Shown here one piece after another: positions 859 to 47,718 of a stretch of DNA of 64,000 nucleotides. Every line of letters starts with the position of its first letter. The stretch's first letter is position 1. Both the position numbers and the translations under genes were made by a program. The stretch is from Parcubacteria group bacterium (GTDB lineage Bacteria > Patescibacteriota > Minisyncoccia > UBA6257 > JACRHW01). The notes beneath the pieces are model-generated. The model saw nothing but the letters and a program-made list of their open reading frames with translations, searched no databases and was not told the DNA's origin. The DNA lies in contig JACRHW010000016.1 in the NCBI GenBank assembly GCA_016217555.1, positions 8,845-72,844 on the forward strand, written 5' to 3'.

Positions 859-2982
859 ATGAGACAATATCCTATCGAAAAATATCGTAACATTGGCATT
901 ATTGCCCACATCGACGCTGGAAAAACAACCGTTTCCGAGCGCATTTTGTTTTATACAGGCATATCCTATAAGATTGGTGAGGTGCATGAAGGGGCCGCAG
1001 TTATGGACTGGATGGAACAAGAACAGGAACGTGGTATCACTATTACAGCGGCTGCGACGACTTGTTTTTGGACGCCCACTTATCTCAAGGATGGCGTTGC
1101 TGATTTAGAAAAGGTTAAGAAAGAGCACGAACATCGCATCAATATTATCGATACTCCAGGTCATGTGGACTTTACTGTTGAGGTAGAGCGATCACTTCGT
1201 GTACTAGATGGAGGCGTTGTTGTTTTTGACGGGGTAGCAGGCGTAGAACCACAGTCAGAAACAGTGTGGAGACAGGCCGATAAATATCATGTGCCTCGTA
1301 TTTGTTTTATCAATAAACTCGATCGATTGGGTGCAAGCTTTGAACGATCACTTGCCTCTGTTCATGAACGCCTTACTCCCCATGCTGTACCCCTAAGTAT
1401 TCCTATTGGTTTAGAATCAGATTTCAAGGGCGTCATTGACCTTATCCGTATGAAAGCTGTTTCGTTTGTGGGGGAAAATGGAAATGATATTGTTCTCTCG
1501 GATATCCCAGAAGATTTGTCAGCAGAGGCAGAGATGTATCGCCATAATCTTATAGAAAAAATTGTTGAACAGGACGACGAATTGCTTACAAAATATCTTG
1601 ATGGAAAGGAGATCAGTGAACAAGAACTTCGTCGTGCATTAAGAAAGGCAACGATTGCTGGTGCTATTGTTCCGGTACTTTGTGGATCCGCTTTGAAAAA
1701 CAAGGGAGTTCAGCTTGTGCTTGATGCGGTAATTGATTATCTTCCAGCACCAACTGATATTCCGGCAATTAAAGGAACAGATCCTGATTCCGGAAACGAA
1801 CTCGAGCGTCATCCTAATGACGAAGAACCATTTTCTGGGCTTGCTTTTAAAGTTGCTACCGACCCTTTTATTGGAAATCTCACCTATGTGCGTGTCTATT
1901 CGGGTGTTTTGAAACGTAGTAGTTATGTTTTAAATTCGGTAAAGGGTGAGCAGGAGCGTATTGGGCGTCTTGTGCGCATGCACGCAAATCATCGTGAGGA
2001 AATTGAGGAAATGTACGCAGGAGATCTTGGTGCTGTGGTGGGACTTAAAACCACATTTACCGGAGACACTCTTTGTGATTCTGCTACGCCTATTGTTTTA
2101 GAAAAAATTATATTTCCAGAACCTGTTATTTCGGTACGTATCGAACCAAAAACAAAAGCAGACCAAGAAAAGATGGGTATTGCACTACGTAGGTTGGCAC
2201 AGGAGGATCCAACATTCCGTATTATAAGCGACCAGGAGACAAACGAAACATTAATTTATGGTATGGGAGAACTCCATCTTGAAATTCTCGTTGATCGTAT
2301 GTTTCGCGAGTTTAAGGTAGAAGCAAATGTAGGAAGACCGCAAGTAGCATACAAGGAAGCCATTAAAGCAAAGGCGGAGGCAGAGGGTAAATATATCCGT
2401 CAATCTGGAGGTAAGGGTCAATATGGACATGTGCGCTTGAGAATCGAACCACGAGAACGTGGTGCAGGGTTTGAATTTACTAATGCTATCAAGGGAGGTG
2501 CCATTCCGCAGGAGTTTATTCCTGCCGTTGAAAAGGGAGTGAAGGAGGCAACAATGAAAGGGGTTCTCGCTGGATATCCTGTCGTTGATGTTGCGGTAAC
2601 ACTTTATGATGGATCGTATCATGACGTAGACTCTTCCGAATCTGCTTTTAAAATTGCAGGTTCTATGGCGTTTCAAGAAGCGGCAAAGCGTGGAGGTATT
2701 TCGATTCTTGAACCTATCATGAAGGTCCAGGTTATTATTCCTATCCAATTCCTAGGCGATGTGTCTGGTGATCTCAATGCCAAGAGAGGAAGAATTGAAT
2801 CCATTGATGAGCGTCTGAATGTAAAAGTTATCGATGTAAAGGTGCCACTTTCAGAAATGTTTGGATACGCCACAAAAATTCGTTCCATGACGGAGGGGAG
2901 AGGAATATTTACCATGGAATTTGATAGCTATCAGGAGATGCCAAAGAATGTGGCAGAACTCATGATGGCAGGCAAGAAGTAA
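859..2982 (+). CDS. fusA: translation elongation factor G
   Basis: GTPase motifs [21 protein letters not shown]; full EF-G domain set; ATG at 859 chosen (track ORF starts at TTG 844). Confidence 0.95.
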
Positions 2983-3158
2983 AGGAGTTGGCTTCTGAAC
3001 GTAGTGAAGAACTGCCAAACCTTTACCCCGCCCTCTAAGCACATCGAGCCTCGTTTTAACCTTGTATCCACATGCATAGAGGGCGGGGTGCTCAATGTTG
3101 TAGATAAATTTATCTCGCTCAACATTGGGTCTCGCTCATAAATTTAAACAACATTGGC
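2983..3158 (+). repeat. structured junction element copy A (~176 bp; RNase P RNA-like)
   Basis: Starts at fusA stop and ends ...caacattggc directly before the next ATG; hairpin ccccgccctctaagcaca...atgcatagagggcgggg plus second inverted repeat caatgttg/caacattg; near-identical copies at 38716 and 40385. Confidence 0.8.
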
Positions 3159-3380
3159 ATGAATACTTTCGAAAAAATAAAAAAAATTCTTGAGTATGGA
3201 AGTGGAAAGGCGATTGTGCTTGACCACGAAGCAACCCCAGCATTTATCGTGATGAACTGGAAGGAGTATGAAAAAATACTCCACACCATCGATGTGCTAC
3301 GTGGATTACAAGAGCAACCAATACATCACGTTCCACGCCCATCACACGACCAACTTACTCTCAACGATCTACCTCTATAG
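3159..3380 (+). CDS. small hypothetical protein, weakly Phd/YefM-antitoxin-like
   Basis: 73 aa; ...KAIVLDHEATPAFIVMNWKEYEKIL... resembles the Phd/YefM fold motif; no toxin partner downstream. Confidence 0.4.
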   Translation: MNTFEKIKKILEYGSGKAIVLDHEATPAFIVMNWKEYEKILHTIDVLRGLQEQPIHHVPRPSHDQLTLNDLPL

Positions 3381-3383
3381 TCA

Positions 3384-3494
3384 CACCTACCCCTCTCCAA
3401 AACTCGCCTCCAAGAGGGAGACCGTTACAACCCCCCTATTATAGCGATACAACTTGACTCCCCCTTGAGGGCTCGCTTCGGAGAGGGGTAGGTT
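3384..3494 (+). repeat. palindromic intergenic element, copy 1 of 2 (second copy inverted at ~56757-56845)
   Basis: 15-bp arms cacctacccctctcc / ggagaggggtaggt flank a core ctccaagagggagaccgttacaacccccctattatagcgatacaacttgactcccccttgaggg that recurs in reverse complement near 56760-56830 at roughly 80 percent identity. Confidence 0.6.
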
Positions 3495-3513
3495 CCAAAC
3501 TAGTATAATATAG

Positions 3514-3543
3514 AAAACACCCCTGTGGGTGTTTTTGGTTTTG
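3514..3543. terminator. bidirectional rho-independent terminator between convergent genes
   Basis: aaaacacccctgtgggtgtttttggtttt; stem acaccc/gggtgt then T-run on + strand, A/T-rich on the other side; sits at the stop of minus-strand ORF 3544-3882. Confidence 0.6.
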
Positions 3544-3882
3544 TTATAAATCTGGTTTTAAAATGCTTTCGAGGAGAAGCTGTTTTATCTCGTCGTACGG
3601 TGTGCGAGAGAAAAAGGGGATGCCGAGGTTGGGGACATCGCGAAGACACTCATTCCAAAAGACTTCAAAAATCGCCTTGGTCCACTCGTCGGGGCTTATT
3701 ACTTCGTTTTTCATACCACGCCACTGCTTTACGCGTCCGAGTCTCATTAGATATTGCTCCCACTCGTAGAAACGACGTTTAAGAATTGAGAGATACCAGC
3801 TCTTTTGTTCACTATCTTTTGGGGGAAAGGCGACAAGATTAAAGATGATGGTTTCCGCATCATAGTCGATGAAGCTACTCAT
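3544..3882 (-). CDS. hypothetical protein
   Basis: 112-aa ORF, no recognisable motifs; start lies 8 nt after the stop of the upstream minus-strand ORF in a different frame. Confidence 0.4.
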   Translation of the reverse strand: MSSFIDYDAETIIFNLVAFPPKDSEQKSWYLSILKRRFYEWEQYLMRLGRVKQWRGMKNEVISPDEWTKAIFEVFWNECLRDVPNLGIPFFSRTPYDEIKQLLLESILKPDL

Positions 3883-3890
3883 CGTTGCGC

Positions 3891-4310
3891 CTACTCAAAC
3901 GAACCATGCGAAAGATGTCTACATTCGCGATCATTTGGCTTTGAACTAAATACATGGCTTGCGCTTTCAACAAGAGTTTTGTCGTATGCTCCAACAAGAT
4001 CGTGTACAACAAGGTGTGCGCTTTCTTTAACCTCATCATCTATCTCTTGTTGTAACTCTTCTTTGTAGTGTTTGGGATGTGGATGTCTTTTCAGCCACGT
4101 TATCTTCCTATAAAGCTCGTGGTGCCAACACTCACTACTGTTGGGACATATGGTGGCGACACCATATCCAGGATAACCACCCATCGTTACTCGATTGGTT
4201 AACCCACCGCACACCCAGCACTTAAATACCTGAAGCGTTCGAAACGTATCATCGCGTTTATTCGGATAATCTTTTTTCCGCATATCATAGAGGACGATGT
4301 TTTCACCCAT
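3891..4310 (-). CDS. hypothetical Cys/His-rich protein (possible metal-binding or HD-like motif)
   Basis: 139 aa; CWVCGG...CPNSSECWHHE...HLVVHDLVGAYDKT; could be one disrupted gene together with 3544-3882. Confidence 0.4.
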   Translation of the reverse strand: MGENIVLYDMRKKDYPNKRDDTFRTLQVFKCWVCGGLTNRVTMGGYPGYGVATICPNSSECWHHELYRKITWLKRHPHPKHYKEELQQEIDDEVKESAHLVVHDLVGAYDKTLVESASHVFSSKPNDRECRHLSHGSFE

Positions 4311-4377
4311 TTTCTGTCACCCCTGTTATAAAAGTACTGTTTCTATATTAAACCCAAAATCAACTTTTTTAAAACCC

Positions 4378-4406
4378 TTGACAAATCCGCAAAAACTGGT
4401 TTACTT
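4378..4406 (+). promoter_or_regulatory. weak promoter-like sequence upstream of ORF 4445
   Basis: TTGACA, 17-nt spacer, then poor -10 (ttactt). Confidence 0.25.
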
Positions 4407-4444
4407 AAATCAGCACAAAACACACAAAAAAGGAGAAAAAAATC

Positions 4445-4951
4445 ATGGGTACACCAAGTACGAACATTCTCACCATCGACCGTTCCCAACCCTTTAACTC
4501 CGAACCCTTTTTCGACAATTGGTGGAGCTTCTGGAAAGGTCCGATCGACGGCAATGGTCTCGAAGGTGACGAGGAGCAAGATCAACGTTCCCTCACCATC
4601 ACGGAGTTGGATCTGAACAAGATTCGTCTCGTGACTATGTTTAATGGTAAGACTAGAATGTCGGGCGAGGAGAGTCTGGTGCTTCTCAAGGCGAGTGGTG
4701 TCATTCGCCTCGACGCCAAGGTTTTCAAGACGCTCTTAGAGAACCAGTCTCATATCCCTAAAGAGTGGTGGAAGAAGACAAATGGTCTCACAACCAGCAT
4801 CTTCTTCGATGGCACGGTTTTCCGCGGTTCGCGTGGCACTTGTTGGACGCTCTGTCTCTGCCTCAGCGGTGGCGAGTGTGGCTGGGGCTACGGCGGGATC
4901 GGCTATAGTCGGAGCGTCGACGATCTGTCTGCGGTGTATGTAAATTCCTAA
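4445..4951 (+). CDS. hypothetical protein
   Basis: 168 aa; preceded by a strong SD aaaaaggag 9 nt before the ATG, which is rare in this window; no known motifs. Confidence 0.55.
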   Translation: MGTPSTNILTIDRSQPFNSEPFFDNWWSFWKGPIDGNGLEGDEEQDQRSLTITELDLNKIRLVTMFNGKTRMSGEESLVLLKASGVIRLDAKVFKTLLENQSHIPKEWWKKTNGLTTSIFFDGTVFRGSRGTCWTLCLCLSGGECGWGYGGIGYSRSVDDLSAVYVNS

Positions 4952-4957
4952 TCCATA

Positions 4958-4990
4958 CCCCACGCACAAGGATGTGTGGGTTTTAATTTC
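4958..4990 (+). terminator. rho-independent terminator-like hairpin
   Basis: cccacgcacaaggatgtgtggg followed by ttttaattt. Confidence 0.5.
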
Positions 4991-5030
4991 TGAAAACCTT
5001 CGGAGGGAAACCAAAAAACAAACACCTGCC

Positions 5031-5145
5031 ACTATGCCACAGCATAGTAGTAACATATTTTTATAGCGGGTCCTAAAAAATGTTTTTAGTCATACCCAGC
5101 ATGCCGTGGCATAGCTCCAACTATGGTAGTCGAACTACCATAGTT
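5031..5145. promoter_or_regulatory. cluster of three perfect palindromes sharing a CTATG/CATAG core
   Basis: actatgccacagcatagt; catgccgtggcatag; aactatggtagtcgaactaccatagtt (12-bp arms), all within ~115 bp upstream of ORF 5200. Confidence 0.4.
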
Positions 5146-5199
5146 AGTAAAAGCATCGTTGCCTTTTGAGACCTGTTGATTTAGTCTAATGGTAGTACT

Positions 5200-5568
5200 T
5201 TGAAGATAGGGGTGGGATGGGTAATGGAAAAAGAACCGCTTGTATTTATCATTGTTCCCAAAGGAAACACAAAAGCCAAAGATGCCCTAAAAAAACTAGG
5301 AGAGTATGCAACATCTCTTTCTATTTGTTTCACTGATACATATGTGTTTCGTAGAGTGAATATGTTTACGGTAGCCCTCAACAAAAAGGATGCTGAAATA
5401 TTGTTTCGTGCTAAATTTCAATGGGTTACCTTTACCGTGCCCAATCTCAACACAGGACCCCACGAAAAGAGTGATTGGAAGGTAATTAAACCACCACAAA
5501 TTCCGCAAGGGCTAGAAGATAGTATCCAATCTATTACCTTAGACCAACAAGTTTTTCTCACCGATTAG
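5200..5568 (+). CDS. hypothetical protein
   Basis: 122-aa ORF starting at TTG (alternative ATG at 5224); followed by a strong terminator; no known motifs. Confidence 0.45.
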   Translation: MKIGVGWVMEKEPLVFIIVPKGNTKAKDALKKLGEYATSLSICFTDTYVFRRVNMFTVALNKKDAEILFRAKFQWVTFTVPNLNTGPHEKSDWKVIKPPQIPQGLEDSIQSITLDQQVFLTD

Positions 5569-5571
5569 TTG

Positions 5572-5630
5572 TGAACCTCCCCGCCCTTACAGGCGGGGAG
5601 GTTCACAGGGGATTGAAATTTCTTTTGTGA
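5572..5630 (+). terminator. rho-independent terminator
   Basis: gtgaacctccccgcc cttaca ggcggggaggttcac (15-bp perfect stem) followed by tttcttttgtg. Confidence 0.75.
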
Positions 5631-5706
5631 GGAATTTTGATTAATTATCATATGCCACCCAAAAACTGGGTGGTTCTCATTTTTACCACCCCAAACGTAA
5701 CAGGGG

Positions 5707-5734
5707 TTGACATATGTTTAAAAATCACTAAACT
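5707..5734 (+). promoter_or_regulatory. sigma70-like promoter upstream of tuf
   Basis: TTGACA, 16-nt spacer, TAAACT; about 95 nt upstream of tuf ATG. Confidence 0.45.
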
Positions 5735-5829
5735 TAATCAGGTAGGTAGATAAACATTTAACTAACATAACAAGAGTAGACAGTGATGCTAAAGCATTAC
5801 TTTTTATTCGTAGAAACAAAAAAATTAGT

Positions 5830-10280: not shown

Positions 10281-10358
10281 CACAAGCGAGCAAAAATGAG
10301 AATTTACTTTCATTTTCTGCGAGCGCAGTGATTATATATCCATCAGGATATATAATCT
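10281..10358 (+). repeat. ~75-bp structured element E1 (inverted partner at 12510-12580)
   Basis: cacaagcgagca aaaatgagaatttactttcatttt ctgcgagcgcagtg + 12-bp palindrome gattatatatcc atca ggatatataatc; E2 is its reverse complement with a diverged central hairpin. Confidence 0.65.
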
Positions 10359-10402
10359 TTTATTCCTAATAAACTAACACCTAAAAAGCTAATAGCTATT
10401 CT

Positions 10403-17975: not shown

Positions 17976-18005
17976 AAAAAGTTTGGTATACTAGAATTAT
18001 ATGAA

Positions 18006-18130
18006 CCCCGTTAGAAATTGCAACATTTACAAAATATATTCATTGCTATGTTTTATAAAAAGTCGTTTGTCATTAATACTACAGGAAACTCCAATTTCTA
18101 ACGGGGTTTACCTCTAACGGGATGAAATTT
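18006..18130 (+). repeat. ~100-bp element with 15-bp terminal inverted repeats, copy 1, running into the adk start codon
   Basis: ccccgttagaaattg ... caatttctaacgggg (perfect TIR) then tttacctctaacgggATGAAATT; near-identical copy at 20013-20139. Confidence 0.85.
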
Positions 18131-19943: not shown

Positions 19944-20012
19944 CTACCGGGATTAAAGTAAACGAGTATTAATTATATAATAAGTAGTTTGTGATTCTCG
20001 GATCGCGATCTA

Positions 20013-20139
20013 CCCCGTTAGAAATTGCAACATTTACAAAATATATTCATTGCTATGTTTTATAAAAAGTTGTTTGTCATTAATACTACAGGAAACTCCA
20101 ATTTCTAACGGGGTCTACTTCTAAACGGGATGAAATTCT
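20013..20139 (+). repeat. ~100-bp TIR element, copy 2, running into the pgk start codon
   Basis: ccccgttagaaattg...caatttctaacgggg then tctacttctaaacgggATGAAATT; ~97 percent identical to copy 1. Confidence 0.85.
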
Positions 20140-22404: not shown

Positions 22405-22832
22405 ATCTTTATGTGGGCAATTGCGATTCAATACAATGTTGAGTCGAGGAAAGTCCGGACTCTCATTTTCGATATTTTGTCGAAATAACAGTAGTGGGTA
22501 ATACCCACCAATCTAACATCACGTTGGATCAGAGGTGCGAACAGAGACGTCGCAATCGAAAGAAAGCGACATCCTTTAGTGGGATGAGCCTGTGTGGTAA
22601 CACATAGGGTGCAACGGCTAAATCCTTACTGAGTGCAAGGTCGTGCCCCGCCCCCTAAGCGCATTGTTATCTATGTAAATCATATTCCTATTTTAAAATA
22701 TTTTTTACGATATAATTAAAACAATATGCATAGGGGGCGGGGAGTGCCGCTTATGATCCTACGAGTAATCGTAGGGCTAGATAAATAATTGTCACCACAT
22801 TGGTACAAAATCCGGCTTATAGCATAAAGAAC
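22405..22832 (+). ncRNA. rnpB: RNase P RNA (bacterial type A-like), with a long P12-type hairpin
   Basis: Universal P4 motifs gaggaaagtccggactc (5' strand) and acaaaatccggcttat (3' strand); agggtgcaacggctaa P10/11-like; terminal helix tctttatg/cataaaga; extended hairpin ccccgccccctaagcgca...atgcatagggggcgggg at 22646-22742. Confidence 0.75.
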
Positions 22833-22866
22833 AAAAACACTGTCATCACTGACGGTGTTTTTGTTC
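22833..22866 (+). terminator. terminator after rnpB
   Basis: acaaaaacac tgtcatcactgacg gtgtttttgtt. Confidence 0.5.
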
Positions 22867-37660: not shown

Positions 37661-37721
37661 GAGATAACTTACAGATTTTAGCTACTAGCTTCTAGGAAAC
37701 ATAATCTAGCTAATCCCTAAT

Positions 37722-37749
37722 TTCCTAAAAGCTAACAGCTAAAAGCTAA
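37722..37749 (+). repeat. CCTAAAAGCTAA-type AGCT-core array immediately upstream of rpmJ
   Basis: ttcctaaaagctaacagctaaaagctaac then ttt ATG. Confidence 0.6.
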
Positions 37750-38262: not shown

Positions 38263-38715
38263 ATGGGTAAAAAACGAGTCATAGAAGAAACAGGAGACCA
38301 AGCACTCAAAGCGAGTAGTGCTCTTCACGATAAAATTAAAGACAGTGCAGGAAAAAGCTCGAGTAAATTACTTGAACGTGGAAAGGCATATATTAATGCT
38401 ACCTATAACAATACTGTTATCGCCATCACCGATATGCAAGGAAATGTGATTGCGTGGAACTCTGCAGGAGCACTTGGCTTCAAGGGTCCCAAAAAGGCCA
38501 CACCTTTTGCAGCCGCAAAGGTAGTTGAATCAGTAAGTGAGAAAATTGCAAAAACTGGCCCTACAAAAATAGATGTTATTGTAAAAGGAGTGGGTGGTGG
38601 ACGAGATTCAGCAATTCGTGCCTTTGCAGGAAGAGGATTTGAGATAGATTCCATTGTTGATATGACTCCTATTCCTCACAACGGTCCACGTCCTCCAAAA
38701 GTAAGAAGAGTATAA
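38263..38715 (+). CDS. rpsK: 30S ribosomal protein S11
   Basis: 150 aa; ...NNTVIAITDMQGNVIAWNSAG..GFKG.KK.TPFAA... Confidence 0.95.
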   Translation: MGKKRVIEETGDQALKASSALHDKIKDSAGKSSSKLLERGKAYINATYNNTVIAITDMQGNVIAWNSAGALGFKGPKKATPFAAAKVVESVSEKIAKTGPTKIDVIVKGVGGGRDSAIRAFAGRGFEIDSIVDMTPIPHNGPRPPKVRRV

Positions 38716-38898
38716 AGGATTTGGCTTCCGAACACAGTGAGGAATTGCCAAACCTTTACCCCGCCTTCTAGGCACAATAACATAAGGTAAATTAAAGAAA
38801 TATGATACTACAAGAATATATGTTACAACAGTATGCAATGTGCTTAGAAGGCGGGGTGCTCAGTTTTATTAACTCACTTCGTTTCGTATAAAATTGGC
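38716..38898 (+). repeat. structured junction element copy B (RNase P RNA-like)
   Basis: aggatttggcttccgaacacagtgaggaattgccaaacctttaccccgccttctaggcac...gcttagaaggcggggtgctcag...aaattggc then rpsD ATG. Confidence 0.8.
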
Positions 38899-39522
38899 AT
38901 GATTGGTCCTAAATGTAAAAAATGTAGAGCGGCGGGTGAGAAACTCTTTATGAAAGGGGAGCGTTGTCTTTCTCCAAAATGTGGAGCCGTACGACGTCCT
39001 TATCGACCCGGTGTACATGGGCCAAGCAAGAAGCGAAGAAATGTAACCGAATTCGGCAAACAACTTCTCGAAAAACAAAAATTAAAATGGACGTACGGAT
39101 TGCGCGAACAGCAATTTAAAAAATATTTCAAAGAAGCTCTCGCAGCTAAAGGCGTTACTATCAATCGCCTCGTGCAAACACTCGAGAGAAGACTTGACAA
39201 CGTAGTTTTTAGACTTGGTTTCGTCCCTTCACGAGGTATGGGACGTGCGCTTGTACGTCATGGTCATTTCCTTGTTAATGGAAGAAAGGTTACCATTCCT
39301 TCACTTGCAGTGAAACCCGGAGATATTATCTCTATCCGAGAAGGTTCAAAAGATCGGGGAGATCTCAAAGATGCGTCTATGAAAATTGCACACTACGAGT
39401 CACCTGCATGGCTTTCTATGAACAAAGAAACCCTTGAAGCAAAAATAACAGCGCTTCCAGAATTACAAGACGTAACTATTCCTTTTAATATCAATCTAAT
39501 AGTCGAATTTTATTCTCGTTAA
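38899..39522 (+). CDS. rpsD: 30S ribosomal protein S4
   Basis: 207 aa; N-terminal zinc-ribbon CKKCRAAGEKLFMKGERCLSPKC; S4 domain. Confidence 0.95.
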   Translation: MIGPKCKKCRAAGEKLFMKGERCLSPKCGAVRRPYRPGVHGPSKKRRNVTEFGKQLLEKQKLKWTYGLREQQFKKYFKEALAAKGVTINRLVQTLERRLDNVVFRLGFVPSRGMGRALVRHGHFLVNGRKVTIPSLAVKPGDIISIREGSKDRGDLKDASMKIAHYESPAWLSMNKETLEAKITALPELQDVTIPFNINLIVEFYSR

Positions 39523-39572
39523 ATAAGATTAGCTCATAGCTGTTGGCTTACAGGGAGATGCAAACCATTGAT

Positions 39573-39616
39573 TCCTAAAAGCTAAAAGCTAAAAGCTAAA
39601 AGCTAAAAGCTAAACT
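39573..39616 (+). repeat. (AAAGCT)n tandem hexamer array immediately upstream of rpoA
   Basis: attcctaaaagctaaaagctaaaagctaaaagctaaact then ATG. Confidence 0.7.
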
Positions 39617-40384
39617 ATGAACATTCCTCTTCCTCAAGAACCATTATTTGAAGACAAAAAAAATAACATCGGCGTTTTTAAAATAGAAGGCCTTCACTCT
39701 GGCTATGGTATTACCCTTGGAAATGCCTTGCGACGAGTTCTCCTCTCTTCTTTGGAAGGTGCAGCGGTAATATCCTTCAAAATAGAAGGAGTAGACCATG
39801 AATTTACAACCATTCCAGGTGTTCTCGAAGATGTTATCCAGATCGTACTTAATCTTAAGAAACTGCGAATTAAACTCCTTAGCGATGGTCCAGAAACCAT
39901 CCACATACGTGTAAAGGGAGAGAAGGAGGTAACAGGACGTGATATAGAGAAAAATGCAAACGTGGAGATAATCAACAAAGACCTTGTGCTCATGACCGTT
40001 ACCGACAAGAAAACTTCTCTTACCATGGAAATCACGGTAGCGCATGGGCTTGGATATCAAACCTCGGACAAGGTACAGACAGAAAAACTTTCTATTGGTA
40101 CTATCGCCGTTGATGCCATCTTCACACCAGTCCGAAGTGTCCAAGACTCGGTTGAAAAAATGCGTGTTGGAGAACGCACCGATTATGATCGTCTTGTTCT
40201 TAAGGTTGAAACAGATGGCAGTATTTCCCCCGAGGAAGCATTTACTGAAGCAGTAGCAATTCTTATTGATCAATTCAAAGCTCTCACCATAGGAACAAAG
40301 ACAGAAGAAAACCAAACAGAAGCGGAAGACGTAATAGAAGAGGGTGAAGAAAAAACTAAAAAAACAAAAAAGGCAAAAAAGTAA
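39617..40384 (+). CDS. rpoA: DNA-directed RNA polymerase alpha subunit, N-terminal domain only (no alpha-CTD)
   Basis: 255 aa; alpha-NTD motifs (...LGNALRRVLLSSLEGAAV...; ...ITVAHGLGY...) then acidic/Lys tail TEAEDVIEEGEEKTKKTKKAKK; stop directly abuts junction-element copy C. Confidence 0.85.
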   Translation: MNIPLPQEPLFEDKKNNIGVFKIEGLHSGYGITLGNALRRVLLSSLEGAAVISFKIEGVDHEFTTIPGVLEDVIQIVLNLKKLRIKLLSDGPETIHIRVKGEKEVTGRDIEKNANVEIINKDLVLMTVTDKKTSLTMEITVAHGLGYQTSDKVQTEKLSIGTIAVDAIFTPVRSVQDSVEKMRVGERTDYDRLVLKVETDGSISPEEAFTEAVAILIDQFKALTIGTKTEENQTEAEDVIEEGEEKTKKTKKAKK

Positions 40385-40560
40385 AGGATTTGGCTTCCGA
40401 ACACAGTGAGGAATTGCCAAACCTTTACCCCGCCCTCTAGGCATATGGATACAAGATTAAAACAAGGCTCGATGTGCGTAGAGGGCGGGGTGCTCAATGT
40501 TGTAGATACATTTATCTCACTCAACATTGGGTTTCGTTCATAAATGTAAACAACATTGGC
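40385..40560 (+). repeat. structured junction element copy C (RNase P RNA-like)
   Basis: ~95 percent identical to copy B over the first 60 nt; hairpin ccccgccctctaggcata...gcgtagagggcgggg; ends caacattggc then rplQ ATG. Confidence 0.8.
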
Positions 40561-40908
40561 ATGAAACACGTCAACAAGGTACGAAAATTTAGCAGAAAAA
40601 CATCAGAACGCAGGGCGTTTATTAAGGGCTTGAACCACAACCTTGTAATGCACGGAAAAATGGAGACAACTCTTACGCGCGCTAAGGCACTCAAAAGTAC
40701 AGTGGAAAAACTTATCACTGTTGCAAAAAAACAAAATGTTGCCTCATTACGTCTCCTCATGCGTCGCCTCCCAAAGATTTCTTCCAAAAAACTTTTCCAT
40801 GAAATTGCTCCAAAATATAAAGAACGTAATGGGGGATATACTCGCGTAATAAGAGGAAAAAGTCGCACAGCAGATGGTACCACCATGGCTATTATTGAAT
40901 TCGTCTAA
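40561..40908 (+). CDS. rplQ: 50S ribosomal protein L17
   Basis: ATG at 40561 (track ORF from 40474 runs through the repeat); MKHVNKVRKFSRKTSERRAF... L17 N-terminus. Confidence 0.9.
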   Translation: MKHVNKVRKFSRKTSERRAFIKGLNHNLVMHGKMETTLTRAKALKSTVEKLITVAKKQNVASLRLLMRRLPKISSKKLFHEIAPKYKERNGGYTRVIRGKSRTADGTTMAIIEFV

Positions 40909-41272: not shown

Positions 41273-41327
41273 GCTTATAGCTGTTAGCTACTAGCTTATA
41301 GGAGACAAGGGGTACTAATCCCGAATA

Positions 41328-41366
41328 TCCTAAAAGCTAAAAGCTAAAAGCTAAAAGCTAACGTAT
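41328..41366 (+). repeat. CCTAAAAGCTAA tandem array immediately upstream of rpsI
   Basis: tatcctaaaagctaaaagctaaaagctaacgtat then ATG; the track start 41367 implies one more heptamer unit than I could read, so unit count is approximate. Confidence 0.65.
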
Positions 41367-41825
41367 ATGCCTACCACTGCTACTAAAATCAAAAAAACGG
41401 TGACCAAAAAAGTATCATCAACAAAAACAGAGGATACTGAAAAATACTTCTACGGTCTTGGACGAAGAAAGACAGCTATTGCTCAAGTACGCCTTTATCC
41501 CAAAAGAAAGGACATCATTATCAATGGCAAAGAATTTCATGCTTATTTCCCAACAAAGCGTACCCAGCTTACTGTTGAAGCTCCTTTCAAAAAAATGAAA
41601 ATTGCCGAATATTTCGGAGGCGATGTAAGGGTACTTGGCGGAGGAGTAAGTGCACAAGCAGAAGCCATACGCCTTGGTATTAGCAAAGCACTTCTCGCCT
41701 TCAATGGGGAGTTCAAGCGAAGACTTAAGCGTGCAGGGTATCTTACACGAGATCCTCGCATGGTAGAACGCAAAAAATACGGCCTCAAAAAAGCACGTCG
41801 TGCACCCCAGTGGGGAAAGCGTTAA
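41367..41825 (+). CDS. rpsI: 30S ribosomal protein S9
   Basis: 152 aa; ends ...KKARRAPQWGKR (S9 C-terminal signature). Confidence 0.93.
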   Translation: MPTTATKIKKTVTKKVSSTKTEDTEKYFYGLGRRKTAIAQVRLYPKRKDIIINGKEFHAYFPTKRTQLTVEAPFKKMKIAEYFGGDVRVLGGGVSAQAEAIRLGISKALLAFNGEFKRRLKRAGYLTRDPRMVERKKYGLKKARRAPQWGKR

Positions 41826-41852
41826 ACTAGCTTTTAGCTGTTAGGTTTTAGG

Positions 41853-41884
41853 AAAAAGACGCCTTTGATGGGCGTCTTTTTGTG
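41853..41884. terminator. bidirectional rho-independent terminator after rpsI
   Basis: aaaaagacgcc tttgat ggcgtctttttgtg. Confidence 0.75.
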
Positions 41885-43918: not shown

Positions 43919-45022
43919 TTGTCGAAGGACTACCTTACACCCATGATTCCCCAACAAAAAAAAGCCATCCTCTATCTCGGAATAATTTTTGTAATTATGG
44001 TTTTGTGGCATCCTGTCACACACGCACAAGGTGGAAGTATTTTTGACGCAGTAGATCCACTAAAAGATCAGGGCATAGAAAGCGTTGTAAACAATATTCT
44101 CAAATTCATGCGAGACATTGGCATTGCCCTCGTCACCATTTTTATCATCTATGGCGGTATCACATGGATGACCTCAGCGGGTGATCCGGGTAAAATCAAG
44201 GCAGGACGAGAAACTCTCCAATGGAGTCTCATTGGACTCGCCGTAATTCTTATGGCATCAGGCATCACCTCAGCAGTACTCGAAGCACTCAAGGTGAAAA
44301 ACAACCCAGTGGATCAACCATTACCACAACAACAAAATCAAAACGATAACACAAAAGGAAATTTTGATAATACAGATACCAAACAAGTAGTGGCAGATAA
44401 CACGGATGATGGTAATGATAAACCACCTTGTGATTTAAATCAAAAACAAAAACAAACCGCATTCTTATTATACGCCGCTGATTCCAATAAAAAAGGATTT
44501 CCATGTCTTCTTTCAACATATCGAGCTTATATGGCCAAGGCATGTGTCGAAGAACAATATGCGAAATATGGCGAAGGAAAAACAAATGCCACAACTCTTT
44601 CCAAAAAATATGGTAACCCGGATGGTGGCGCTTGGTGTGCTGCTTTCGTTTCATACTGTTATGGAAAAGCGGGTATTCCCTGGCCAGTTAATACTACATA
44701 TGGCAAAATTTATGTCCCTGATGTATGGAATAACTGGGGGGGAACAAAATTTACTCCAGAGGACATTGCGACAGGAAAAACGAAACCGCAAACTGGAGAT
44801 TTAGTAATATATAAAGATAATGGATCCCCACCATATGCACACATAGGTATGATCACAGATTATAATTCAAAAACGGGGGTATTTTATACGCTTGAAGGAA
44901 ATGCTAGTAGTAATGACTCTAATGCTCCAGGGGCAGTCATAACCAGGCGATCTTTCCGCTATGATCAAGTCCACACGGGAACTGGCTCCGGAGATAGGCA
45001 TAATCTTTTTCTAAGACCATAA
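43919..45022 (+). CDS. membrane protein: VirB2/TrbC-like double-TM pilin-like module + Q/N-rich linker + C-terminal CHAP-domain peptidoglycan amidase/peptidase
   Basis: 367 aa; signal; TM hairpin IGIALVTIFIIYGGITWMTSAGDPGKIKAGRETLQWSLIGLAVILMASGI; CHAP motifs GGAWCAAFVSYCY ... GDLVIY ... YAHIGMITDY. Confidence 0.65.
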   Translation: MSKDYLTPMIPQQKKAILYLGIIFVIMVLWHPVTHAQGGSIFDAVDPLKDQGIESVVNNILKFMRDIGIALVTIFIIYGGITWMTSAGDPGKIKAGRETLQWSLIGLAVILMASGITSAVLEALKVKNNPVDQPLPQQQNQNDNTKGNFDNTDTKQVVADNTDDGNDKPPCDLNQKQKQTAFLLYAADSNKKGFPCLLSTYRAYMAKACVEEQYAKYGEGKTNATTLSKKYGNPDGGAWCAAFVSYCYGKAGIPWPVNTTYGKIYVPDVWNNWGGTKFTPEDIATGKTKPQTGDLVIYKDNGSPPYAHIGMITDYNSKTGVFYTLEGNASSNDSNAPGAVITRRSFRYDQVHTGTGSGDRHNLFLRP

Positions 45023-45034
45023 AAAAAATTAAAT

Positions 45035-45286
45035 ATGTCTAAAAAACTTTTGATAATTCCCTTTCTTATTCTCATGGCAATTTTGGGGGCAGAAATGTAT
45101 TATTATATAAATCAAACAAGATCAAAAACCGAAATCATACTACCAGCTACACAACAACTTATAAAAAAACAAACGGGAGCAAGAAAATTTCCCATAATAC
45201 ATAGTCAACGATGGAATAATCTTCGGGAAGATGAATTAAGGGCGGAACCAGAAACGATGAGAAGATCTTATTTGCTTTCTACTTAA
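45035..45286 (+). CDS. small hypothetical membrane protein
   Basis: 83 aa; single TM LLIIPFLILMAILGAEMYYYI. Confidence 0.4.
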   Translation: MSKKLLIIPFLILMAILGAEMYYYINQTRSKTEIILPATQQLIKKQTGARKFPIIHSQRWNNLREDELRAEPETMRRSYLLST

Positions 45287-45301
45287 ATTTTTACACACCT
45301 T

Positions 45302-46426
45302 ATGTCCACCAAGAAAATAGTAGTCATCGTATCTCTCATAAGTACCATTGCATTAGCGGGGTGGTATTTAGTACCCAAAAAACAAATTCCTACCGATGCA
45401 CAACCAATAAAAACCACTGCAACATTTCGACAAGATCTCCCTACCCCAACCATCGAAAGTACACAAGATCATACAATAGCCTTTCCAGTATTGTCGCAAG
45501 ACGACCAATCGATACGCTATTTGAAAATAACAGGAAACACAATAGAAGATAATACTTTTTGGGAGTTGAAAACTGACGGAACTAAACGTCAACTCACTTT
45601 TGATCATATTGATGAAATACAAAATATTATATGGTCTCCTAATCGAGAAAAAGCTCTTATTCTTGTTAAAAATAATCCGGAAATAGCTAATAATGAACCG
45701 GCGTTCCATACCATAAAATTTCCGGAACTTGCCTATGTAATGTATCTTTATGATCTAAAAACAAACGTCTCAAAAGTTCTTTCGGATAAAATTAAATTCG
45801 CCACATGGTCTCCTGATGGATCAAAAATAGCCTATGCTTATGACGATCGAGTTTTGACGATAGCAAACCCAGATGGGTCTGATTATAAATCGCTGTGGGA
45901 TATTACAAAAGACCCTACTCTTTCTAAAACAAAGAATTTCTTTTTTGCATTATCGTGGCCTCAACCAGATACCATTGTTCTTGACTTAGCGAACCTTGAT
46001 ATATCGGGAACAATTTATCACATCAACCCTCTCACTGGTGTTAAGAAAAAACTACTTTCTTCTGCAGATGTACCGATACCTTCCCCAGATGGAAAACGGG
46101 GGATAGCCTATGGATCTAATAAAGAAACACGAACCCTAGCGCTTTGGGGAGAACATCTAATTGGAAAAAACATTAGCCCAATCTCAACCCGTACCAGATT
46201 CCCAGACCTAACAGCTTGGAATCCTGATAATCAACATGTCTACGTTGTAGAAAACGAACTATATACAACAACACCAAGGGTACTTGATATTAATAGCGAC
46301 AATGGCGCTTACACTACATTAACATGGCCTGGACAACCTTTTGGAGTAAGTGATGTTTTGATAACAAAAACAGGGGACAAACTCTATCTTGTGGGTTACA
46401 ATCAAATTCGGATTTTAAATCTTTAA
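45302..46426 (+). CDS. membrane-anchored beta-propeller protein (PD40/TolB-like repeats)
   Basis: 374 aa; N-terminal TM; repeated W(S/N)PDG..IAY-type motifs (WSPNREKA, WSPDGSKIAY, PSPDGKRGIAY, WNPDNQHVY). Confidence 0.5.
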   Translation: MSTKKIVVIVSLISTIALAGWYLVPKKQIPTDAQPIKTTATFRQDLPTPTIESTQDHTIAFPVLSQDDQSIRYLKITGNTIEDNTFWELKTDGTKRQLTFDHIDEIQNIIWSPNREKALILVKNNPEIANNEPAFHTIKFPELAYVMYLYDLKTNVSKVLSDKIKFATWSPDGSKIAYAYDDRVLTIANPDGSDYKSLWDITKDPTLSKTKNFFFALSWPQPDTIVLDLANLDISGTIYHINPLTGVKKKLLSSADVPIPSPDGKRGIAYGSNKETRTLALWGEHLIGKNISPISTRTRFPDLTAWNPDNQHVYVVENELYTTTPRVLDINSDNGAYTTLTWPGQPFGVSDVLITKTGDKLYLVGYNQIRILNL

Positions 46427-46440
46427 AACAATGACACAAA

Positions 46441-47718
46441 ATGATTAACAAAAACTTTGTTATCTCTTTTTTTCTGAGTGGAGTTTTGTTTTTCTTAATT
46501 TCTCCAATAATCACAAAAGCCTCTCAAGAAAAAATAATTATATATTCTGCAACATGGTGTGGTGCGTGCAATACATCAAAGGATTATTTAAAAACAAATG
46601 GCCTTGTGTATGAAGTAGTCGATATTACGAATTGGACTGATGAAAAACTAAAAAAAGAAGGGATAGGAGGAGTACCGGTGATTCAAGTGGGAAATACCAA
46701 ATTCCTTGGCTTAGATGATGCGAGAACAAGTTTGGAACAACTCAAAAATAATCTTATGGCGGATAAAGAAAAAACTGATGCCCCAACCTCCCAGAACAAA
46801 ACAAAAACAGGAGGCTTCCAACTCGTTCCTTGTAACGGAGTCGATTGCTCGCTGTGTGATGTGTTTGTCATGGTAAACAACATCTATCAACTCCTTGTTT
46901 GGATTGCCGCTTCGTTTGCTATAGGGCTTATCACCTATGCGGGGATTACCATGATTGTAAATAGTGCGAATCCAGAAAAAGCAAAGAAGGGAAGAGAACT
47001 GATTATTCAAACCCTGATTGCCCTTGCTATCGTATTTGGTTCTAGCTTGATTGTAAATGAAGTACTACATGCACTTGCAGGGAGTAGTGCAACCTCGGAT
47101 AATGTATTTCATAAATTTACTTGTGAATCGAAGTCACCAACCCTTGGGGGGGTAGGACTTTCAAAGGTGGGGGGAGGAAAGATAACCCTAAATGGAGCGA
47201 CGCAAAATGGTGGTGGGCAAGGCGGAGGAGGTGGAACAAGCGCAGAAGGCCAAGCATTAGCAGATAAAGCAAGAACACTCGAGGGGCATAAAAGTACAGA
47301 ATTTTGTAGTTTTGATCCACGCAATGCGTGTGCCTCAGTCGTAAGCGACGCATTAGGACTATCTCAAGCAGATATGCTTAAATATGGGACAAGAAGTGTT
47401 GACGGTGTTGCAAATTTTGTAAAAACCCAAAGAGGTTACAATAGAAAGGTTACTGATCCTTCGCAACTAAAACCAGGAGACATTGTCTTACTTAATGTCG
47501 GAAGTCGTTATAGTAATGACGCTGGTGGTGTTTTTTCAAATGATCCAGTATGGTCCCAACAAGCAAACAAAGTTGGGGGTTATCCTCAGCATGTTGGTAT
47601 TTATGTTGGTAACGGGATGATAATTGATAATTCATCAGAACCAAAAGGTTCTCAAGGCAATGGAGTTAAATACCGCCCACTAACAACCCATACCTTTTTT
47701 GGTGGACTGGGAAAATAA
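46441..47718 (+). CDS. multi-domain secreted/membrane protein: glutaredoxin-like + Cys motif + VirB2/TrbC-like double-TM module + Gly-rich linker + NlpC/P60- or CHAP-like papain-fold hydrolase
   Basis: 425 aa; YSATWCGACNTSKDYL...GVPVIQVG (Grx/NrdH-like); VPCNGVDCSLCDVFVMVNN + TM hairpin; KFTCESKSPTLGGVGLSKV; C-terminal ...NACASVVSDALGL...GDIVLL...QHVGIYVGNGMIIDNS. Confidence 0.6.
   Translation: MINKNFVISFFLSGVLFFLISPIITKASQEKIIIYSATWCGACNTSKDYLKTNGLVYEVVDITNWTDEKLKKEGIGGVPVIQVGNTKFLGLDDARTSLEQLKNNLMADKEKTDAPTSQNKTKTGGFQLVPCNGVDCSLCDVFVMVNNIYQLLVWIAASFAIGLITYAGITMIVNSANPEKAKKGRELIIQTLIALAIVFGSSLIVNEVLHALAGSSATSDNVFHKFTCESKSPTLGGVGLSKVGGGKITLNGATQNGGGQGGGGGTSAEGQALADKARTLEGHKSTEFCSFDPRNACASVVSDALGLSQADMLKYGTRSVDGVANFVKTQRGYNRKVTDPSQLKPGDIVLLNVGSRYSNDAGGVFSNDPVWSQQANKVGGYPQHVGIYVGNGMIIDNSSEPKGSQGNGVKYRPLTTHTFFGGLGK

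Follow-up and report, generated by a model that had tools for sequence, protein, structure and literature searches.

REP/BIME repeats are imperfect palindromes of 20-40 nt; a tetranucleotide is conserved at their 5' end, and the genome encodes a Y1 (RAYT) transposase cognate to them. BOX (pneumococcal), ERIC/IRU (enterobacterial), and Correia (Neisseria) elements are short (approximately 100-300 nt), noncoding, highly structured, and present in multiple copies. They consist of exchangeable modules, occupy intergenic regions, are co-transcribed, and are distributed patchily between close relatives. To our knowledge, none of them has borders set by a stop codon and the start codon that follows. 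Terminal inverted repeats and a TA duplication characterize Correia elements and typical MITEs. Rickettsia palindromic elements (RPE) are selfish palindromes that survive in a tiny genome where the host product is spared; they may occupy structural RNA genes, and insert in frame to be translated as an extra peptide. Bacterial rRNA intervening sequences or expansion hairpins and the rRNA insertions of CPR are lineage-specific helix extensions.

Much of bacterial diversity belongs to CPR/Patescibacteria, whose genomes are tiny and on which hardly any experimental work has been done. The element described herein was found in a 64-kb window, i.e., the whole stretch of DNA analyzed, of a Parcubacteria group metagenome-assembled genome (MAG); copies 1, 2, and 3 are the element copies inside this window. 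In contrast to REP/BIME, the element is much longer and tripartite. It shares all of the features listed above for BOX, ERIC/IRU, and Correia elements, but has neither the terminal inverted repeats nor the TA duplication of Correia elements and typical MITEs. Similar to RPE, it is a palindrome in a tiny genome that appears to spare the host product, and one of its modules (H2) is found in a structural RNA gene, the RNase P RNA gene rnpB; in contrast to RPE, it sits between cistrons. The apex of this rnpB hairpin is a lineage-specific helix extension as in the rRNA insertions; the difference is that the module is common to an mRNA-borne repeat family and occurs in both orientations. The element is closest to BOX, ERIC, and Correia elements, and its lifestyle is closest to that of RPE. 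It is set apart from these by its stop-to-start delimitation, its three hairpins without linkers, and its spread over several lineages of Patescibacteria. Rfam 15 at gathering thresholds left the element unmatched in the 64-kb window, permissive Rfam scans of copy 1 and three canonical copies gave no relevant match, and no description of the element was found in the literature. Therefore, it is apparently undescribed so far. We propose that the repeats form a family of modular, palindrome-rich insertion elements of 130-290 nt that is specific to Patescibacteria (CPR). We consider the chances that this proposal is correct to be even, an estimate that applies to the explanation as a whole, namely, the insertion of a mobile, modular palindrome, its zipping out of the mRNA, and coupled downstream translation.

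A preliminary description of this DNA had claimed three repeat copies, each spanning the distance from a stop codon to the next start codon. All three were present at these places and were joined by a repeat finder, and each extended from the U of the upstream UAA through the AUG of the next gene. The copies are 182-189 nt in length, fill the entire spacer between two co-transcribed genes, and fold into three consecutive hairpins (H1, H2, and H3) that stand back to back with no unpaired linker. The flanking genes were identified using Pfam.

2980-3161, plus strand: copy 1, from the fusA stop codon (2980-2982) to the ATG (3159-3161) of a conserved 73-aa ORF; H1 2980-3025, H2 3026-3088, H3 3089-3161
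38713-38901, plus strand: copy 2, from the rpsK stop codon (38713-38715) to the rpsD ATG (38899-38901); H1 38713-38758, H2 38759-38856 with a long apex, H3 38857-38901 in the short form
40382-40563, plus strand: copy 3, from the rpoA stop codon (40382-40384) to the rplQ ATG (40561-40563); H1 40382-40427, H2 40428-40490, H3 40491-40563

The RNA folds of all three copies were more stable than those of shuffled sequences (copy 1, -62.7 kcal/mol, z = -6.0; copy 2, z = -6.8; copy 3, -79.7 kcal/mol, z = -9.4). A covariance model of the element detected the three copies (122.7, 95.3, and 125.5 bits, respectively) and no others in the 64-kb window. The hairpin-arm pattern CCCCGCCYYCTARGC occurred eight times in the window against 0.22 expected, and these occurrences were both arms of four hairpins, one in each element copy and one in rnpB. 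A second inverted repeat, caatgttg...caacattg, had also been pointed out and proved to be hairpin H3. The antisense peptide GKGLAIPHCVRKPNPL, which had been reported as common to the copies, was confirmed; it is the reverse-complement reading of H1, which is identical at 46/46 positions in copies 2 and 3. A contig of the Logan assembly SRR12113407 (L001) carried the same S11 stop codon, continued into the element for its first 27 nt, and then broke inside H1, which is the expected behavior at a repeat. Since this independent contig enters the element at the S11 stop codon, it argues against an assembly artefact.

The first helix of H1, UAAAGG/CCUUUA, includes the upstream stop codon and is followed by the helix UUGGC/GCCAA. 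H1 is 45-67 nt in size, and an apical GCC-GNA-GGC-GAA motif is frequent. The base of H2 is conserved, CCCCGCC(CUCUA)/(UAGAG)GGCGGGG, while its apex is hypervariable and may be flipped. H2 has a perfect stem of 12-18 bp in most copies and ranges in size from 17 to 166 nt with a cluster at 94-104 nt; the minimal form, CCCCGCC-AUC-GGCGGGG with a 7-bp stem, was found in L006 copy a. H3 has the form UGC-U-CAAUGUUGU/ACAACAUUG-GCA, and its closing U-A pair takes the A of the downstream AUG. H3 exists in a short form (approximately 45 nt) and a long form (60-75 nt); two pairings of the long form were supported, and it may be a pseudoknot or a switch next to the AUG. Although H1 is identical in copies 2 and 3, their H2 and H3 differ. 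Copies 1 and 3 are identical at 40/46 positions of H1 and 68/73 positions of the long H3, and copy 2 differs from both in its short H3 and its other H2 apex. The modules have had separate histories within this genome.

Incomplete forms were also noted. The elements at 1312-1488, 4580-4754, and 5922-6185 of L026 are without a normal H3 and are followed by another common repeat (ACCCAGCTCTTTCTTCGCTAAAATACTTATAAATATTTGTGTATTTTTAAGG...), which suggests that they are composite or decaying copies at gene ends. A lone H2-type hairpin (CCCCGCCCTTTCCGCAAGAAAGGGCGGGG) without H1 or H3 is present at 654-682 of L025, and, thus, the H2 stem can exist outside the full element.

A scan of one genome per species with the 19-mer at the H1/H2 junction identified five true elements, in MAGs labelled Candidatus Liptonbacteria, Candidatus Saccharibacteria (two), and Patescibacteria group bacterium (two), in addition to eight chance matches in unrelated GC-rich genomes. 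Many further copies were found in a scan of metagenomes. Several of the loci originate from groundwater wells at Hainich (H43 contigs and H43/H52 MAGs). The census obtained by regular-expression and covariance-model searches comprised 29 copies on 18 distinct contigs after the removal of duplicate contigs. The repeat is thus a family and not a peculiarity of this locus. All related copies were recovered via the 19-nt H1/H2 junction sequence, which is the same in MAGs labelled as Liptonbacteria, Saccharibacteria, Parcubacteria, and Patescibacteria. We considered and rejected phage-borne spread: the sole match on a viral contig was a chance match inside a coding region and was not recognized by the covariance model.

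All 29 copies were co-oriented with the flanking genes, and none was antisense. The upstream stop codon was position 1 of the element in 19 of the 29 copies. In the remaining copies, the stop codon lay a few codons within H1 and the upstream protein was extended (tails KGLA and KGLARENKP). The element thus occasionally adds 2-10 residues to a neighboring protein, at the C terminus of the upstream protein or, in L031, at the N terminus of the downstream protein. The downstream ATG formed the final 3 nt in 22/29 copies. The occupied junctions, with genes assigned from gene calls and Pfam checks, are as follows (gene upstream / gene downstream):

tuf / rpsJ
? / rplC
rplV / rpsC
rpsC / rplP
rplB / rpsS
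rpsQ / rplN
rplN / rplX
rplE / ?
infA / rpmJ
rpmJ / rpsM (twice)
rpsK / rpsD (twice)
rpoA / rplQ
rplQ / rplM
rpsL / rpsG
rplL / unknown gene
? / rpsT
? / rplY
hsp20 / rpmB-like
release factor / ftsE-like ATPase
ftsZ / nrdD
? / lepB

Genes 3' of the element encode the ribosomal proteins S4, L17, S19, S10, S3, L3, L14, L16, L24, L36, S13, S20, S7, L25, and L28; the non-ribosomal genes in this position are ftsE-like, nrdD, and lepB.

The structure is conserved by compensatory change, as shown by an alignment of 21 elements with the H2 apex trimmed. The three-hairpin structure was paired in 92.3% of cells, and this value decreased to 34-51% when the partners were slid by 1-3 columns. Double (compensatory) changes occurred in 30/50 pairs, and 0/500 shuffles attained the observed values. 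Covariation extends even to the most strongly conserved helices: the first helix of H1 covaries from UAAAGG/CCUUUA to UUAAGG/CCUUAA (L018) and UGAUG/CAUCA (L006), the helix CCCCGCCC/GGGCGGGG is changed to CCCAGCAC/GUGCUGGG in one L026 copy, and the closing helix of H3, UGC/GCA, is replaced by UAC/GUA or UGA/UCA. A comparison of copies 1 and 3 outside H2 gave 11 differing positions, none of which disrupts a pair despite a paired fraction of 74%, and four of which make up two compensatory pairs. G-U pairs were not enriched over A-C mismatches (11 vs. 8). Furthermore, the sense RNA was not more stable than the antisense RNA overall, and H3 was less stable in the sense RNA. With no G-U enrichment and no stability bias toward the sense strand, the stems may be preserved in the DNA rather than in the RNA.

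The relationship between H2 and rnpB involves the following features of the window:

3026-3088, plus strand: H2 of copy 1, the whole hairpin flipped relative to the H2 of copy 3
22405-22835, plus strand: rnpB, bacterial class A RNase P RNA (RF00010), not in the element family
22646-22742, plus strand: H2-type hairpin in rnpB, at the P16/P17 position

The reverse complement of the copy 1 H2 was identical to the copy 3 H2 at 58/63 positions against 47 in the direct orientation, which shows a flip at the DNA level or insertion in either orientation. A flip test limited to the H2 loops of these copies gave a score of 23 against a null maximum of 11 (p < 0.0005). These comparisons show that H2 apices were inverted and exchanged at the DNA level. 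The rnpB gene matched RF00010 over its full length (1-367) with 98.6 bits (gathering score, 100; E = 6e-31) and aligned with the rnpB genes of relatives L046 and L048, which were reached through the neighboring RNase HI gene. The CCCCGCCCCC hairpin that the preliminary description had placed in rnpB is present; however, its label "P12-like" was incorrect because the hairpin aligns to the P15-P16-P17 arm of the RF00010 model. Its stem base, CCCCGCCCC, resembles the H2 base and is the same in 9/10 of the base-most pairs. This stem base looks native because it matches the P16 stem of L048 (CCCAGCACCAC/GUGGUGCUGGG), where P17 is short; in L046, the arm at P16/P17 is also short but unrelated. The window rnpB has a 61-nt apex that neither relative shows and that is similar to the copy 2 apex in flipped orientation (p = 0.014). 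These results and the flipping of H2 supported the suggestion that a mobile hairpin module has also entered rnpB; an H2-type apex was copied into the P16/P17 arm.

The preliminary description had also considered the whole element as homologous to the 3' half of rnpB, of which it would be a duplicated or retro-copied fragment. The closeness of the H2 arms to the arms of the rnpB hairpin and the near identity of CCCCGCCCC to the H2 base are in accordance with this origin. However, neither H1 nor H3 showed significant similarity to the rnpB flanks (p = 0.07-1.0, dinucleotide shuffles), which refutes the homology for these two modules, and the 9-mer "tagataaat", which had been taken as a colinear block, is missing from the other 18 aligned elements. 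RNase P covariance models did not match copy 1 (E <= 10) or three canonical copies (E <= 1), and the element model did not match the window rnpB. The family occurs in several Patescibacteria lineages, but the long rnpB apex was found only in this genome and not in L046 or L048. Similarity is confined to the H2 hairpin, the outcome that the preliminary description had itself named as refuting the relationship. We regard an origin of the element from rnpB as very improbable. Regarding the surroundings of this gene, rnpB is on the same strand as the adjoining RNase HI gene in the window and on the opposite strand in L046 (1427-1837) and L048 (2505-2897).

Relatives were found via RpoA homologues that are 74-90% identical to the RpoA of the window, which gave five alpha operons. 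The S11|S4 junction held unrelated spacers of 10, 36, 40, and 43 nt in four relatives, and the RpoA|L17 junction held unrelated spacers of 11, 23, 26, 30, and 81 nt in five. At the junction between fusA and the 73-aa ORF, TAA and ATG abut in L049, and an unrelated spacer of 51 nt is present in L050. At the alpha-operon junctions of the relatives, coding-sequence conservation extends as far as the stop codon on one side and resumes with the ATG on the other. The covariance model found zero copies in 57 kb of the relatives' DNA. Since the relatives are without the element at all three junctions, the sequence comparison shows that the three window copies were gained recently. A role as an RNA processing site or translation landing pad, as proposed in the preliminary description, would fit the placement between stop and start codons; however, the element is not a required host signal at these junctions because close relatives do without it. 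The entire spacer was replaced at all three junctions, with no leftover ancestral spacer and no duplicated target motif.

Regarding mobility, the element behaves as mobile repeats do: orthologous sites are polymorphic for its presence (empty at 3/3 junctions, with as many as five relatives for a junction), and a single genome carries several near-identical copies. Terminal inverted repeats of the MITE type are not present: the ends are 5'-TAAAGG and GGCATG-3', and the inverted repeats are internal to each hairpin. TTGGC...TTGGC was rejected as a target-site duplication; this repeat lies inside the element, and the empty sites of the relatives are without TTGGC and share no common motif. Among the ORFs of the window that lie outside the ribosomal-protein operons, 20 were examined and none had a transposase or invertase domain; Pfam, PHROG, and NCBIfam gave no match for the five ORFs located between fusA and tuf. 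We infer that the element is selfish and mobile and that it is tolerated in the essential operons of organisms without Shine-Dalgarno sequences. Simple insertion does not explain the exact replacement of the spacer, which speaks against our explanation.

No Shine-Dalgarno-like motif was found upstream of any ribosomal-operon gene (approximately 37 genes in the window, as well as L006). Junctions in the ribosomal operons of the window and L006 are typically 2-14 nt and AU-rich; normal junctions of a few nucleotides fit termination-reinitiation coupling. H3 closes directly on the AUG and would thus stand in the way of independent initiation of downstream genes that are nevertheless essential. 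Because of these features, we prefer a model in which the insert zips up fully in the mRNA once transcribed. This would set the stop codon beside the next start codon at the foot of the three hairpins, and a terminating ribosome would be handed over to the downstream cistron by termination-reinitiation or by a shunt-like transfer. Downstream translation would stay coupled, making the insertion tolerable. The model would also explain the exactness of the borders and the strict retention of pairing. We infer the steps of zipping out and coupling from the predicted structure and its context. General mechanisms of translational coupling have reportedly been covered by a review. As in the shunting on the cauliflower mosaic virus (CaMV) 35S leader and at structure-bridged initiation sites such as that of phage T4 gene 38, a stable RNA structure would join a take-off or termination site and a distant start codon, and the ribosome would pass over the folded part. 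However, shunting in CaMV takes place in eukaryotes, on a single long stem that is preceded at a distance of a few nucleotides by the stop codon of a short ORF, whereas the present element has three hairpins and the stop codon is inside the first helix. The likeness is one of how the element may work.

Several points speak against this model. A ribosome on the stop codon has already unwound the 5' arm of H1, which makes the intact three-hairpin geometry impossible at termination. The stems have no excess of G-U pairs and are not more stable overall in the sense RNA, so what maintains them could act on the DNA. The mobile nature of the element is also countered by the results for transposases (20 window ORFs) and target-site duplications, and a 19-nt sequence that is the same across lineages could instead reflect a conserved trans-acting partner and a host function. 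Taking the preferred model further, we tentatively speculate, with the chances being against it, that the element is a "translation-transparent" mobile RNA structure or, as a close alternative, a CPR-wide mRNA punctuation signal. Under the former, zipping up, with the U of the stop codon and the A of the AUG as its limits, would hide 130-290 nt from CPR ribosomes that do not use Shine-Dalgarno sequences, and reinitiation across the element would be a prokaryotic counterpart of ribosome shunting. Under the latter, the signal would be read by a conserved factor that also recognizes the P16 arm of RNase P RNA.

Stems that are nearly all Watson-Crick and do not favor the sense strand, with no excess of G-U pairs, are also what a purely DNA-level repeat of the REP/BIME or another palindromic type would show. 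Its single-stranded hairpins would act as substrates of an HUH/Y1 transposase or as sites of recombination or replication, and the mRNA structure would be a by-product. The flipping of H2, the swapping of modules between copies, the polymorphism among relatives, and the frequent breaking of contigs at the element agree with this reading. However, it leaves unexplained the coincidence of the borders with stop and start codons as well as the 29/29 co-orientation, as the reverse complement would fold equally well, and neither a nearby transposase, terminal inverted repeats, nor a target duplication was found. We consider such a repeat to be rather unlikely. The exact stop-to-start placement and strict sense orientation that count against it would be expected if the host cut the spacer, e.g., through RNase III cleavage of the long H2 stem or through a different nuclease acting at the junction. 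Cleavage would divide the polycistronic mRNA into an upstream part protected by a hairpin at its 3' end and a downstream part with a defined 5' end, as at the intercistronic RNase III sites of T7 and in mitochondrial tRNA punctuation. The perfect 12-18 bp stem of H2 points in the same direction, as does the junction sequence, whose conservation in MAGs labelled as Liptonbacteria, Saccharibacteria, and Patescibacteria is suggestive of a trans-acting partner. RNase III sites of the phage T7 type comprise approximately 20 bp or more of near-continuous dsRNA, against the 12-18 bp of H2 in most copies and the 7 bp in L006 copy a, the latter being too short for RNase III. Furthermore, these essential gene pairs are expressed in close relatives that have no element between them, and a cut at the 5' border would yield non-stop mRNAs. 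Therefore, RNA processing by the host is an unlikely function.

The absence of the element from the same junctions in close relatives is also difficult to reconcile with a cis-regulatory site for a ribosomal protein or translation factor, i.e., an autoregulatory leader common to many junctions. Such a leader would account for the prevalence of the element in ribosomal-protein operons, the conserved junction sequence of the three-helix structure, and the possible pseudoknot of the long H3 adjoining the AUG. However, the element is not tied to one operon: no fewer than 15 different genes follow it, among them ftsE-like, nrdD, lepB, and an unknown ORF. In addition, no known leader family in Rfam matches it. 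We judge a leader function to be improbable.

Other candidate functions were examined and rejected. AAGGAG at the 5' end was considered as a Shine-Dalgarno sequence delivered by the fold; however, no Shine-Dalgarno motif precedes any gene in the window or L006, and most members have AAAGGGC. A mini-ORF extending from the loop of H2 across H3 as far as the downstream start codon has no conserved frame, start, or stop, and is missing from copy 1. A scan of 38600-40700 revealed no terminator-like site in the elements, and the four promoter-like sites in this region matched the 4.2 expected, which disposed of an intrinsic terminator and of an internal or invertible promoter. A likeness of GGCGGGGUGCUCA to a tRNA 5' end was dropped: ARAGORN found no tRNA in the window, and UGC pairs and covaries within H3.

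The present study describes a conserved, covarying, multi-copy element without an Rfam match that lies inside the most essential operons of CPR and precisely replaces the spacers from stop to start codon. It bears on what lets internal cistrons start translation when Shine-Dalgarno sequences are missing, on the ways in which minimal genomes come to retain selfish DNA, and on how RNase P RNA and other structural RNAs gain lineage-specific hairpin expansions. It also bears on assembly breaks in the ribosomal-protein operons of CPR, which are relevant to phylogenies based on ribosomal-protein markers. If true, translation transparency would be a new way for selfish DNA to live in essential operons. 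The covariance model and the pairs of filled and empty sites are provided by this work.

We noted other repeats near start codons. A-rich tandem motifs, CTAAAAGCTAA or (AGCTAAA)n, immediately precede the start codons of many genes, among them rpsG and rpoA, and are located at 230-268, 10352-10391, 37710-37749, 39560-39613, and 41315-41354 of the window. They recur in the empty-site spacers of relatives (ctaataagctaa) and in L037 spacers. From their position, these motifs may be the normal translation-initiation signal of this lineage without Shine-Dalgarno sequences. A short intergenic repeat (CTTAYAGNTKTTAGCTACTAGCTTMTAGGARACA) at 37668-37701, 41274-41307, and 41824-41857 adjoins the AGCTAAA repeats around the alpha operon. 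A 113-nt repeat with 97% identical copies at 18005-18117 and 20012-20124, 5' of adk and pgk, ends in ...ctaacgggATG and has no Rfam match; a similar "ctctaacgggATG" precedes L006 genes.

The gap of approximately 2.8 kb between fusA and tuf (3159-5829) contains the 73-aa ORF, which has no family match, ORFs on the opposite strand, and a terminator-like hairpin near 3515-3545. The 73-aa ORF is conserved and also follows fusA in relatives. RpoA (39617-40384) is 255 aa in length, has a lysine-rich tail, and is without the C-terminal domain (no PF03118). Homologues of approximately 230-275 aa are also without this domain, and most of those of approximately 300-330 aa have it. The region 3' of the ribosomal cluster (43919-47718) contains genes with T4SS pilin (TrbC/VirB2-like), CHAP, NlpC/P60, and glutaredoxin domains, and a T4SS-pilin gene is also located 3' of the ribosomal cluster in relatives L037, L040, and L044.
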